13,630 bases of DNA from a virus. Below, piece after piece: positions 1,333-5,877 of this stretch. The DNA lies in the UHGV virus genome UHGV-0353144; one strand, written 5' to 3'. Below the pieces are notes generated by a model. It worked only from the letters and a program-made list of their open reading frames with translations, was not told where the DNA came from and made no database searches. The translations under genes were made by a program, and so were the position numbers. Position 1 is the first letter of the stretch; every line of letters starts with the position of its first letter.

Positions 1333-1683
1333 TTACTTCAACCGTTCACGGGCCGTCTTCGCCTTATGACACGGCCAGCACAGACTCTGCAGATTACTGT
1401 CGGCATCAGTGCCGCCATGCGCTTTAGGGATGATGTGGTCAACGGTTTTCGCTTCACGCACCACACCGGCACGCAGGCACAACTGGCACAGTCCTTTGTC
1501 ACGCTTCAACACACGCACGCGGATAACATCCCACTTCGAACCATAACCGCGCTGGTGACGGGACTGACCTGGCTTATATTGCGTCCAGCCTTCGCTTTTG
1601 TGGCTTTCACAATAGCCTGACGGATCTGTGGTGGTATGGCGGCAACCGCGAACACGGCAGGCTTTTGGGATTCGTGGCGGCAT
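1333..1683 (-). CDS. HNH endonuclease (terminase-associated)
   Basis: 116-aa ORF with Cys-rich N-terminus (CRVRGCRHTT...YCESH) and the HNH core DHIIPKAHGGTDADSNLQSLCWPCH. Lies immediately upstream of the terminase genes, as in HK97 gp74. Confidence 0.9.
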   Translation of the reverse strand: MPPRIPKACRVRGCRHTTTDPSGYCESHKSEGWTQYKPGQSRHQRGYGSKWDVIRVRVLKRDKGLCQLCLRAGVVREAKTVDHIIPKAHGGTDADSNLQSLCWPCHKAKTARERLK

Positions 1684-2036
1684 ATGTACTAATCTCCGAT
1701 TTATCCAAATTTCACTGCCATAATGCCGACATTCTCTGCCATTGTTGGCTCCGTTTATCCGTTAAAAGGGATATCAGTTAAGTTATCCCGTGTAGGGTAT
1801 AAGCCATTGTCGAGACCACTCATTGAATGGTCTCTGCAATAACCGATGTCTTTCCATCAGTCCGCCACCACAAAGAATCTTTTTTGCCATAAGGCTGGAG
1901 GTTCATCTTTCAGTGGCTGCCAGTGTTATTTCCCCACTTACTGGCTTGGGTTGTATCGCTGTACTGCCGTAACTGGTTACCCAGAATAAATTCCGGTTTC
2001 ATTATCAAGCCCACCCGTAGATGGGCTTTGTAATGG

Positions 2037-2294
2037 CTACTTCGCTTTTGCTTCCGCTCGCTTACGCCGGCGCTCTTCTTTCCTCTCGGCTTTTGCCATG
2101 TCCATGAATGCCTGCATGATCGAGTTCCGCATCATGTAGCTAACAAAGTGATGATTGACACAGCCGTTGAGGCGCAGCTGCTCGCCAAACTCATCCACCG
2201 AGGCCAATGCTTCCATCATGCCCTTCTCGCCTTTCATGAACTCTGAGAAGTCGCGCCCCGCTCTGGAGGCGCATTCAATGACACGATCACTCAT
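2037..2294 (-). CDS. hypothetical protein (85 aa), translationally coupled to the upstream KilA-N gene
   Basis: ORF-track ORF 2037..2294. Its ATG overlaps the stop of the KilA-N ORF (ATGA at 2291-2294). Lys/Arg/Glu-rich C-terminal tail (AKAERKEERRRKRAEAKAK). No family recognised. Confidence 0.5.
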   Translation of the reverse strand: MSDRVIECASRAGRDFSEFMKGEKGMMEALASVDEFGEQLRLNGCVNHHFVSYMMRNSIMQAFMDMAKAERKEERRRKRAEAKAK

Positions 2295-2788
2295 CCCGGA
2301 AGCCCGGGGATCGTAATCTGCAGCTGGTTAGCCAGGGAGTTAATCTCAGCGACCAACACTGGCTTCGTATAGCGCCATGCCGCCAGCCCTTGTCCGCAGA
2401 AGCTCGCCATGTCTTTCTTCTGGTCAAACTCATGACATTTCATGTTGAGCTGCGCACTTAAGCTGTTGCGATGCTGAAGTTCTCCAGTGAAGTAGTCATC
2501 GAGGACTTTATAGGCCGCGTACTTGAACCCGGGGTTTAACCAAGCCGCATAATCGTAAGCAACAAACTTCCCGCCATATGTTCCACCGTGTACACCGCGC
2601 TCAGTAAAAACCACAGATTCGTGGTTTTTCTCCAGCTCGGCTAAGAACTCTTTGGTCTGCTTGTTTCGCAGGTAGTGGTACGGAGATTCAGATTCACTTT
2701 TACCACTGGCTTTCCACATATCAGTGAGGCAGATCATTCCTGATTCATCAACACGGATCGGTGTATTAAAAAGCGTGATTGCTTTCAT
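2291..2788 (-). CDS. KilA-N (APSES-like) domain protein
   Basis: ORF-track ORF 2291..2824 begins at a GTG with no SD. The internal ATG at 2788 has an AAGG SD and gives N-terminus MKAITLFNTPIRVDESGMICLTDMWKASGK, which resembles the KilA-N DNA-binding domain from memory. Start assignment is uncertain. Confidence 0.6.
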   Translation of the reverse strand: MKAITLFNTPIRVDESGMICLTDMWKASGKSESESPYHYLRNKQTKEFLAELEKNHESVVFTERGVHGGTYGGKFVAYDYAAWLNPGFKYAAYKVLDDYFTGELQHRNSLSAQLNMKCHEFDQKKDMASFCGQGLAAWRYTKPVLVAEINSLANQLQITIPGLPG

Positions 2789-2930
2789 AGCGTCTTTACC
2801 TTTTAGAAAGTGAGCCTGTCTCACAGAAAAGCCGCCCGAGAGAGGTCGCCACCTATAACGGCATTTCTCAGGCTCGCTTACTGAAAGGCTCTCGTTAATA
2901 TGCGCGTGAGATGCGCGTTTACTGCGGACA

Positions 2931-2955
2931 TAAAAAAGCCCCGCATCGCGAGGCT
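2931..2955 (-). terminator. putative intrinsic terminator downstream of Rz
   Basis: On the minus-strand RNA: stem AGCCUCGC / GCGGGGCU (8 bp including one G-U), loop GAU, then UUUUUUA. Lies about 30 nt after the Rz stop. A loop of 3 nt is tight, so the stem may be 7 bp with a 5-nt loop. Confidence 0.45.
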
Positions 2956-2986
2956 CATTAAATGGACTTTGTGATTTGCAAAAAAA

Positions 2987-3454
2987 TTATTTCGGGCATT
3001 GCGTCCTGATGTATTCCTGAAGCGTTCTCAGTGCTGTTTGGTCGCGGATAATTCCGTCCCGGATACCGAGAACGTTTCGTCCAGCAACTGGAGAGAGTTC
3101 GACGGAGGCATCATTGCCCATGCCGGAGGCGCTGGAGGTTTCGGCTGAGGATGGCATAGGGCATTTTCCTTTGACGAGCACCCTACCACCATTATCAAGC
3201 TCGCGCCGAAGAGCATCATTTTCAGCTTTCGCATCAGCTAACTCCTTCGTGTATTTAGCATCGAGTGCATCAGCAGTACGCTGGCGCTGCTGCATGTCAG
3301 TAATGGTGGCAGTCGCCTGCTTCAGCTCACTGCCTTTTTTATCGCGCTGCTCTTTGTAGGCGATGGCGTTATCACGGTAATGATTAACAGCCCATGACAG
3401 GCAGACGATGATGCAGATAACCAGAGCGGAGATAATCGCGGTGACTCTGCTCAT
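2987..3454 (-). CDS. Rz: Rz i-spanin
   Basis: ORF 2987..3454. N-terminal ~85 aa ([31 protein letters not shown]...[19 protein letters not shown]) match lambda Rz as I recall it; the C-terminal part diverges. ATGA overlap with the R stop. Confidence 0.85.
3028..3234 (-). CDS. Rz1: Rz1 o-spanin, embedded in the +1 frame of Rz
   Basis: ORF entirely inside Rz. Strong SD AAGGAG 8 nt upstream of ATG at 3234. Lipobox MVVGC followed by a proline-rich segment ([11 protein letters not shown]), as in lambda Rz1. Confidence 0.75.
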
Positions 3455-5215: not shown

Positions 5216-5877
5216 GCGCCTTCTCCCTGTACCTGAATCAATGTGAGATTTCCGCAGAACACTGCGCCGGTATCGATATACATCTGGTTGGCAAATTTGA
5301 GTGGTTTCACTGCTGGCGTATGACCAAAGATGAACGTGTCCGCGCCTTTGATTTCTTTCACGATCCCGTCTTGTGAGTTGCTGATTCGTTCGCGGTTCCA
5401 GATTACCTGCTGATGATCAACTGGCTTTCCGAACTCGTATTCATCACAAGGATAATCGGCGTGGCAGATGATATATTTTTTATCTTTGCTCACCAGTTCG
5501 ATGATTAACGGAAGTTCATCTGCTTTATGGGCAAGAGCTTTAGCCAGAATTTCTTTGTCGTAATCGAGATTAAAGAACCAGCCACCGCCATTAAGCAGCC
5601 AGTGATTGACGTTTCCACGCTCTGATAAGCCATCAATCATCATTTGCTCATGGTTTCCACGTACAGCTATGAACCAGGGGAATGTGATTAATTCCAGGCA
5701 TTCAACGTTCTCTGTACCGCGATCGACCAAATCGCCAACCGAGATAAGCAGGTCTTTTTTGGTGTCGAATCCTATCGTCTCCAGTTTTTTCATCAGGTTC
5801 GTGTAGCATCCGTGCAGATCGCCAACTACCCAAATATTTCGGTATTTGCTGCCATCAATTTTTTCGTAATAGCGCAT
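5206..5877 (-). CDS. ninI: Ser/Thr protein phosphatase (lambda NinI / PP-lambda type)
   Basis: ORF 5206..5952; ATG at 5877 with GGAG SD gives [29 protein letters not shown]...GNHE, the calcineurin-like metallophosphatase motifs. Near-identical to lambda NinI by recall. Confidence 0.95.

Follow-up and report, generated by a model that had tools for sequence, protein, structure and literature searches.

What governs the expression of a gene pair that lies between the lysis and packaging genes of a phage and has no evident promoter? The question is raised by a 13,630-nucleotide (nt) stretch of UHGV virus genome UHGV-0353144 (hereafter the window), in which a gene for a KilA-N domain protein is followed by a coupled open reading frame (ORF) for a protein of 85 amino acids (aa). 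All genes in the window are on the minus strand, as are the coordinates given below. The initial annotation of the locus described a terminator, a tandem repeat, the KilA-N gene and the ATGA-coupled ORF, all of which are present on the minus strand where it placed them, and it treated the pair as a moron with a promoter of its own. No such promoter was detected by a scan for sigma-70-like sites, the only type covered, on the minus strand from 1600 to 3100, including the interval at 2789-2935 between the terminator and the ATG. The intergenic region is, over its whole length, a structured leader that runs up to the start codon. The best explanation, and a probable one, is that the locus belongs to a family of exchangeable cassettes in the late operon, with the leader throttling or gating translation of the first gene.

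The leader is folded, its helices covary, and it stands before many unrelated genes. The consensus fold was obtained with RNAalifold from 68 distinct sequences and consists of a first hairpin (H0), a rod that holds the Shine-Dalgarno (SD) sequence, helices P2 and P3, and an apical hairpin P4 of the form NGGU-GGCG-ACCN'. A covariance model built from this alignment, for which E-values are rough, finds the leader once in nearly every locus, together with diverged second copies. When 55 sequences were aligned under the guidance of the model, 91.9% of cells were paired and 26 of 34 pairs showed a compensatory change, a number reached by none of 500 shuffles; slid controls gave 4-6 pairs. A structure-agnostic MAFFT alignment of 56 sequences, which takes in the copies of P22, Dewey and Klebsiella, had 87.5% of cells paired and compensatory change in 27 of 40 pairs. 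Again no shuffle among 500 reached this count, and slid controls gave 6-16 pairs with 35-47% paired. Cells with G.U outnumber those with A.C (50 versus 21, one conserved C.A column excluded), and RNA of the coding strand is therefore favoured.

The helix formed by the anti-SD and SD strands (alignment columns 57-64/148-155) has 86% of its cells paired and two-sided change in five of eight pairs; the Morganellaceae copies have CUUAUAG/CUAUAGG. P3 shows compensatory change in 8 of 10 pairs, as in AGGAACGCCG/CGGCGUUCCU and AGAAAUGUCG/CGAUAUUUCU. The closing pair of P4 is A-U in 33-38 sequences and U-A in 16-30, and P4 has no counterpart in two diverged copies (L008, 8502-8629; L071, 337-472), so that it is dispensable in some of them. 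A further helix, P1, joins a strand next to the anti-SD strand to one beside P4, and all six of its pairs change on both sides in the MAFFT alignment. Its versions include CGAGAG/CUCUCG, CCCGAG/CUCGGG, CCAAGA/UCUUGG, CAUGAG/CUCAUG, CACAGAA/UUCUGUG, CCAAGAA/UUCUUGG and CUCAGAA/UUCUGAG, with CCACCGA/UCGGUGG in P22. P1 forms a mean of 6.3 bp with its own partner versus 3.7 bp with shuffled 5' segments. Diverged copies of the leader keep the fold despite little sequence identity, and three unpaired segments are invariant: the GGCG loop, a UAAG junction and ACGCU before the AUG. The positions of all these elements, and of the neighbouring genes, are listed in Table 1.

In the predicted fold the SD is almost entirely occluded. 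Its probability of being unpaired is 0.026 in the window, with a median of 0.064 over 55 copies, and rises to 0.50 with shuffled upstream sequence. The SD is thus paired within a conserved, covarying helix, as in an SD-sequestering leader.

Table 1. Elements of the leader and genes of the surrounding locus in the window
Feature	Coordinates	Strand	Remarks
Structured non-coding leader	2916-2789	minus	~130 nt; opened by H0
H0, first hairpin of leader	2916-2913 with 2905-2902	minus	GCGC with GCGC, loop AUCUCAC; formed by the 2900-2918 repeat
Exact direct repeat ATGCGCGT-GAG-ATGCGCGT	2900-2907 and 2911-2918	minus	11-bp period
P1 5' strand CGAGAG	2894-2889	minus	Abuts anti-SD strand; pairs with 2842-2837
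Anti-SD strand CCUUUCAG	2888-2881	minus	Pairs with SD strand 2806-2799
P2 5' strand GAGCCUG	2875-2869	minus	Pairs with CAGGCUC 2818-2812
P3 5' strand AGAAAUGCCG	2868-2859	minus	Pairs with CGGCUUUUCU 2834-2825
P4 apical hairpin AGGU-GGCG-ACCU	2854-2843	minus	
P1 3' strand CUCUCG	2842-2837	minus	Between P4 and P3 3' strand
P3 3' strand CGGCUUUUCU	2834-2825	minus	
P2 3' strand CAGGCUC	2818-2812	minus	Variable 6-7-nt bulge from P3 3' strand
SD strand CUAAAAGG	2806-2799	minus	SD AAGG; ~8 nt upstream of ATG 2788, inside basal helix
KilA-N + ORF11CD3 gene, hkbK homologue	ATG 2788 to TGA 2291	minus	165 aa
85-aa ORF, hkbL homologue	2294-2037	minus	ATGA overlap with KilA-N stop
3' hairpin of cassette	2026-2009	minus	7-bp stem, no T-run, conserved
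Q	5215-4697	minus	
Holin S	4234-3911	minus	
Lysozyme R	3927-3451	minus	
Rz/Rz1	3454-2987	minus	
Intrinsic-terminator-like hairpin, end of lysis cassette	2956-2936	minus	3' of Rz/Rz1; 9-bp stem, 6 GC pairs, T-run
HNH endonuclease gene	1683-1333	minus	
Small terminase gene (terS)	1216-713	minus	

These features suggest how the locus may work. Lambdoid and P22-like phages would share a family of exchangeable accessory cassettes within their Q-dependent late operon, most often between the lysis and packaging genes, and this locus would be one of them. Each cassette would be composed of a ~130-nt leader, a first gene, often a translationally coupled small partner, and a 3' hairpin. The first gene would usually encode a DNA-binding protein of the Bro network (here KilA-N plus ORF11CD3) or an HNH- or GIY-YIG-like nuclease. 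In the window the cassette lies in that operon and has no promoter-like site ahead of it, so that its leader is probably read in the late transcript. The anti-SD CCUUUCAG would lie on the SD strand CUAAAAGG to form the base of the rod, with P2 and P3 stacked above and P1 bridging to the apical region. This fold would hold the SD inaccessible, so that within an abundant late transcript the first gene would be translated at a low level or conditionally, and the second gene would follow it by translational coupling. Release could come from processing by an RNase, from a host or phage factor, or from opening driven by the ribosome. Low translation would be appropriate for proteins whose excess is harmful, for example Rha or the KilA protein of phage P1, which is lethal to the host.

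Two known systems are comparable. Homing-endonuclease genes of the T4 family (I-TevI, segB, mobE) carry hairpins that sequester the ribosome-binding site (PMC2988022). The likeness is that structure in a phage mRNA covers the SD of a mobile, potentially harmful gene for a DNA-binding protein or nuclease inside a larger transcription unit (PMC2988022). The T4-family hairpins, however, are simple and local and are bypassed by an internal late promoter (PMC2988022), whereas the leader here is ~130 nt long, has several helices and a long-range helix, and precedes many unrelated genes, with no internal promoter detected. The isrK-orf45-anrP region of Gifsy-1 is similar in that a prophage mRNA upstream of an antirepressor-like gene is transcribed and kept translationally silent by intramolecular structure (PMC4825925). 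IsrK lies just downstream of a Q-like gene, and a short isoform of IsrK itself activates it in trans by way of an upstream ORF (PMC4825925); the leader described here is at another position, has no upstream ORF, and gave no match to IsrK of Rfam.

Other readings of the leader sequence were rejected. GCCG...CGGC followed by UUUUCU resembles an attenuator or intrinsic terminator, but the U-tract is not conserved. The U-run pairs with AGAAA and is replaced by GUUCCU, GCUCCU or AUUUCU in relatives, with compensating changes on the 5' side; it covaries as a strand of a helix, and the attenuator reading was therefore discarded. An alternative hairpin, CUGU-GAG-ACAG, is not conserved in the Morganellaceae copies. 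A small ORF within the leader was rejected on the basis of 1-nt indels among relatives and the lack of a conserved ATG. Phage c341 has an annotated 56-aa coding sequence (CDS), gp64, that lies entirely inside the leader (L005, 1518-1688) and is probably spurious.

The leader is apparently a folded RNA element that has not been described before. Rfam 15 gave no relevant match at E<=1 in the window region and none at the gathering score in 10 loci, and PGAP has nothing annotated at the leader in 646 Escherichia coli records. No description of it was found in a literature search, which does not prove that none exists.

Several points weigh against the proposed explanation. Repression of translation is a prediction from the structure. 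P1 crosses the rod and must therefore be either a pseudoknot, with P1 stacked on the SD helix beside P2-P3, or an alternative state. The SD helix contains a C.A mismatch (2883/2804) in about 50 of the 55 copies, replaced by U-A in Morganellaceae; this conserved mismatch may tune the stability of the helix. Conservation of sequence extends to the unpaired positions of the leader, and recent spread or recombination, not RNA function, could account for part of it. Retrieval relied mostly on a pattern fixing GAGCCTGAG...GGTGGCGACC, and many of the rows are close relatives; since exact patterns were used, the diversity of the leader is under-sampled. A promoter of a type outside the sigma-70 scan could be present. 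Finally, the roles of both proteins are predictions, and PADLOC gave a weak match, to PDC-S22 alone (33 bits over ~30 residues).

The leader is also carried by two model phages, in both cases 5' of rha. The phi80 copy (JX871397; L299, 5636-5782) is identical to the window type and scores 169 bits, and that of P22 (BK000583; L298, 896-1051) is diverged, with 64 bits and an E-value of 4e-16. The annotated start of P22 rha (locus position 976) is inside the leader, and an SD-preceded ATG lies in frame 23 codons downstream, at 1045. Likewise, the annotated GTG of phi80 rha (locus position 5740) is inside the leader, with an SD-preceded ATG in frame 12 codons downstream, at 5776; the equivalent GTG is also present in the window, at 2824. 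Because the annotated starts are within the leader and a conserved, SD-preceded ATG follows in frame, the annotated Rha proteins are probably too long, by 23 residues in P22 and 12 in phi80. The presence of the leader upstream of rha in phi80 and P22 makes the element testable with established phage genetics.

The rha association bears on the possibility of a factor-responsive switch in the leader, either riboswitch-like or under the control of a protein or small RNA, in which P1 and the SD rod are two states or a stabilised pseudoknot and a specific signal, possibly linked to IHF in the case of Rha, turns translation on. The two helices covary independently and cross topologically, the unpaired GGCG, UAAG and ACGCU segments do not vary, and the phi80 record, one of the two with the leader 5' of rha, carries for Rha the note 'DNA synthesis inhibition in IHF- hosts'. 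However, no candidate ligand, protein or small RNA partner was found, P4 with its otherwise invariant loop is missing from some diverged copies, inspection by eye revealed no IHF consensus in the leader, and the literature search yielded nothing on it. Such a switch is rather unlikely. In a broader form, put forward tentatively, the leader might represent a new class of pseudoknotted, signal-responsive RNA that accompanies mobile Bro, HNH and GIY-YIG cassettes and sets the timing of their translation, and it could be connected to the growth block by Rha that is restricted to IHF-deficient hosts, an observation 30 years old.

Gating of translation through the SD would be secondary if the leader were mainly an element of RNA processing or stability, such as an RNase III site comparable to the inter-cistronic hairpins of T7, that frees the cassette mRNA from the late polycistron. 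P2 and P3 together make a helix of 17-19 bp with a nearly continuous 5' strand and an asymmetric bulge of 6-7 nt on the 3' strand, and the leader is located between two modules of a long operon, right after a terminator hairpin. Nevertheless, the anti-SD/SD pairing is specifically maintained by covariation even where the SD itself has changed, as in the Morganellaceae pair given above, and it is not obvious what P1 would contribute to an RNase III substrate, so that processing is improbable as the primary function.

The leader is widespread. A query with the 211-bp intergenic region showed it to be conserved upstream of differing genes, among them Rha regulators, other KilA-N proteins and a GIY-YIG-like protein. 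Pattern scans found it in at least 120 viral contigs, and the prophages that carry it span about 20 genera within the order Enterobacterales, from Escherichia to Photorhabdus, Xenorhabdus, Morganella, Yersinia, Serratia and Pantoea. A metagenome scan added at least 120 contigs but no new diverged types. By megablast, 641 of 5,426 complete E. coli genomes carry the leader (about 1 in 8), with no annotation under the match. Near-identical leaders of the E. coli type with Rha or T5orf172 cassettes also occur in metagenome-assembled genomes labelled Cellvibrionaceae, Bacillota and Collinsella (L136, L154, L159, L162); these are most likely contamination or mis-binned contigs of enterobacterial phages.

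The first genes behind the leader form 26 clusters, and the domains they encode in Pfam are Phage_pRha, KilA-N, ANT, Bro-N, P22_AR_N with ORF11CD3, T5orf172/MUG113 and HNH_3 (with AP2 or a helix-turn-helix), with few unmatched. The ATG is at a constant distance from the 3' end of the leader in all cases. Some first genes are followed by a second ORF coupled at -4 or -1 that belongs to families unrelated to hkbL. The initial annotation's view of the interval between lysis and packaging genes as a variable accessory slot is borne out by the occupation of that slot by at least 26 first-gene clusters. In phi80, the slot upstream of the packaging genes carries the defence and counter-defence genes Tai/Ati (PMC11364771). 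The lysis cassette is the usual upstream neighbour, with an Rz homologue within 400 nt of the leader in 162 of 237 cases, and a comparable terminator hairpin is found 5' of the leader in 122 of 165 distinct upstream contexts.

Directly upstream of terS there may be two successive cassettes, both preceded by a leader, of which the second is strongly diverged (L128, 3506-5700; L151, 3494-5540; L008, 7312-9045; L157, 3276-5180). In phage Dewey (L002, 2099-2789), a gene for a 183-aa HNH endonuclease lies between a diverged leader (75 bits) and a KilA-N/hkbL pair that is 99.8% identical to that of the window. The whole unit is also found outside the post-lysis slot, since a Klebsiella prophage has a leader (73.7 bits), a KilA-N/P63C gene and an hkbL homologue among its tail genes (L172, 2101-3252). 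In L056 (3774-3925), the leader is cut after P3 and fused to sequence past the 3' hairpin at a junction ...GCGAA/ACCGGAATTT whose microhomology is GAA, so that the contig represents a cassette deletion or an 'empty' slot. On the 3' side, at the conserved hairpin, HK620, E212 and Gally have the same 45-nt block behind differing cassettes.

Such mobility could also be explained if the stretch were conserved as DNA, as a recombination or homing flank for the swapping of selfish Bro, HNH and GIY-YIG cassettes, with the RNA fold incidental. The cassettes are bordered by the conserved leader on one side and the 3' hairpin with a conserved 254-nt block on the other, many of their genes are nuclease-like (HNH_3, T5orf172), the HNH gene of Dewey is inserted right behind the leader, and near-identical leaders occur in phages with differing neighbours. 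A mere homology arm would not be expected to show 27 of 40 compensatory pairs or an excess of G.U over A.C, to stop exactly at the SD and ATG, or to retain its fold with little sequence identity, and this reading is very improbable.

The 8-bp direct repeat had been taken for a possible binding site. The repeat itself is exact, but its reading as a protein-binding site is not supported, as relatives keep a hairpin and not a direct repeat. In RNA form, ACGCGCAU-CUC-ACGCGCAU contains the self-complementary GCGC twice and therefore forms H0. What is kept among relatives is GCGC-N6-7-GCGC, or GCGT...ACGC in Klebsiella phages, and versions such as CGCGC-AUCGCA-GCGCG, UGCGCA-GUCGCA-UGCGCA and GCGU-AUCGUAC-ACGC are not direct repeats. 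RNAalifold assigns H0 four pairs, in which 96-99% of cells are paired and CG is replaced by UA in compensation. The window has 6 exact 8-mer direct repeats at such spacing, versus a shuffle mean of 2.7 (maximum 12), so the repeat occurs at a chance-level frequency and its unit, not conserved in relatives, does not resemble an iteron or operator array. A -10-like TATAGG was rejected as a promoter element since its sequence is not conserved, and a terminator scan made no call at the hairpin downstream of the pair, which has no T-run. An autonomous moron with its own promoter, a ATGCGCGT repeat bound by a protein (perhaps KilA-N) and an 85-aa ORF detached from the KilA-N C-terminus is thus largely refuted by the comparative data and hardly credible: the exact 11-bp-period repeat, the hairpins flanking the pair and the DNA-binding fold of KilA-N are set against a direct repeat that is missing in most relatives while the hairpin is retained, repeats at chance frequency, no promoter-like site in the sigma-70 scan, the same upstream sequence before genes without a KilA-N domain, and hkbL-like domains that are never fused to KilA-N.

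The two genes themselves are ordinary, and the pair has been catalogued before. It corresponds to hkbK/hkbL of phage HK620, with 98.4% nucleotide identity over the pair, and is present in 241 phage records. In HK620, as in the HK97 gp61-like genes and the 'kilA' plus hypothetical protein of Stx phages, the order, the ATGA coupling and the position after Rz are the same as in the window. The window differs from HK620 in that hkbM (DUF2560) is truncated and an HNH-TerS packaging module is in place; otherwise nothing of substance differs.

The 165-aa protein matches KilA-N (PF04383) at residues 7-101 (6.6e-16; 58.5 bits versus a cutoff of 23.8) and ORF11CD3 (PF10549) at residues 109-161 (2.4e-13; 50.5 bits versus a cutoff of 25). 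The identification of its N-terminus as KilA-N/APSES therefore holds, with a profile score above the curated cutoff and an APSES-like alpha/beta DNA-binding fold. The 'split' KilA-N architecture suggested earlier is not found, as the protein has a C-terminal ORF11CD3 domain of its own, modelled as a long helical hairpin. Foldseek with the KilA-N model gave no significant match in the PDB, and a PDB sequence search gave no match. Assignment to a defence system was rejected because the PADLOC match is weak. BstA is a KilA-N-containing abortive-infection protein of prophages (PMC8585504); it is longer than the 165-aa protein and has a distinct C-terminal domain (PMC8585504), and neither that domain nor a defence-model match beyond the weak one to PDC-S22 was found here. 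No antirepressor-type control region (Arc/Mnt, LexA or similar) is present in the window, and an antirepressor-like function for the pair is possible. The pair most likely encodes a DNA-binding regulator and a helical adaptor partner, both roles being predicted, expressed late at a low level.

The 85-aa protein has a highly basic tail, KAERKEERRRKRAEAKAK, and is assigned to phrog_875; searches of Pfam and NCBIfam gave no match. It is confidently predicted to fold as a bundle of three helices, the C-terminal one long and basic (predicted local distance difference test, pLDDT, 92). The hkbL-type family is tiny: at 50% identity it has 19 representatives in a set of 1.84 billion proteins. None of these is a KilA-N fusion, contrary to the proposal that the ORF is a detached KilA-N C-terminal domain; the lone apparent fusion, P0001, looks like a frameshift artefact. 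C8, C45, H48 and H49 are invariant in the family, suggesting a possible metal site. T5orf172/MUG113 proteins, c341 gp65 among them (28% identity, E 3e-11), begin with a homologous domain, and relatives that stand free invariably follow a Bro-type gene in tight coupling, an example being the KilA-N+P63C gene in the tail region of the Klebsiella prophage. Because its relatives are either coupled to Bro-type genes or fused N-terminally to T5orf172, the 85-aa protein appears to serve the Bro network as a partner or adaptor module. An immI-like operon (L175, 154-2738) contains arc, arc, P22_AR_N (Ant-like) and Rha, followed by an hkbL homologue with a 4-nt overlap; its link of the family to an antirepressor context is suggestive only.

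The domains of the Bro network (KilA-N, Bro-N, Rha, ANT, P22_AR_N, T5orf172 and ORF11CD3) were described by Iyer et al. 2002, as summarised in PMC10111431. Almost all cassette genes behind the leader belong to this domain-shuffling network. The Bro-network literature compared here does not mention a shared structured leader or a recurrent hkbL-like coupled partner.

Downstream of the cassette (1996-1743) is a non-coding block of 254 nt that is nearly invariant among phages with differing cassettes and is found in 194 phage records, including P22, ST64T and HK620. Its minimum free energy is -80.7 kcal/mol versus -60.9 kcal/mol for shuffles (z -4.3). It is usually 5' of the DUF2560 gene (hkbM / P22 orf80), and small CDSs are annotated within it in Dewey, as is 'orf25' in P22. 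The block is possibly another structured RNA, or small ORFs may lie within it. It is followed in the window by a 13-codon remnant of DUF2560 (ATG 1742, stop 1701) that abuts the start region of the HNH gene (ATG 1683). The segment at 1701-1742 is a mosaic joint between a P22/HK620-type module and the HK97-type HNH-TerS packaging module.

The leader thus shows strong covariation and is carried by the model phages P22, phi80 and HK620, while being outside Rfam and genome annotation. It provides a common regulatory handle on a large and poorly understood set of accessory genes, comprising Bro, KilA-N, Rha and ANT proteins and free-standing nucleases, and the conserved 5' and 3' borders of the cassettes help to explain their swapping between phages. 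If the leader were a signal-responsive RNA, it would govern when selfish or regulatory cassette genes are translated across enterobacterial phages.

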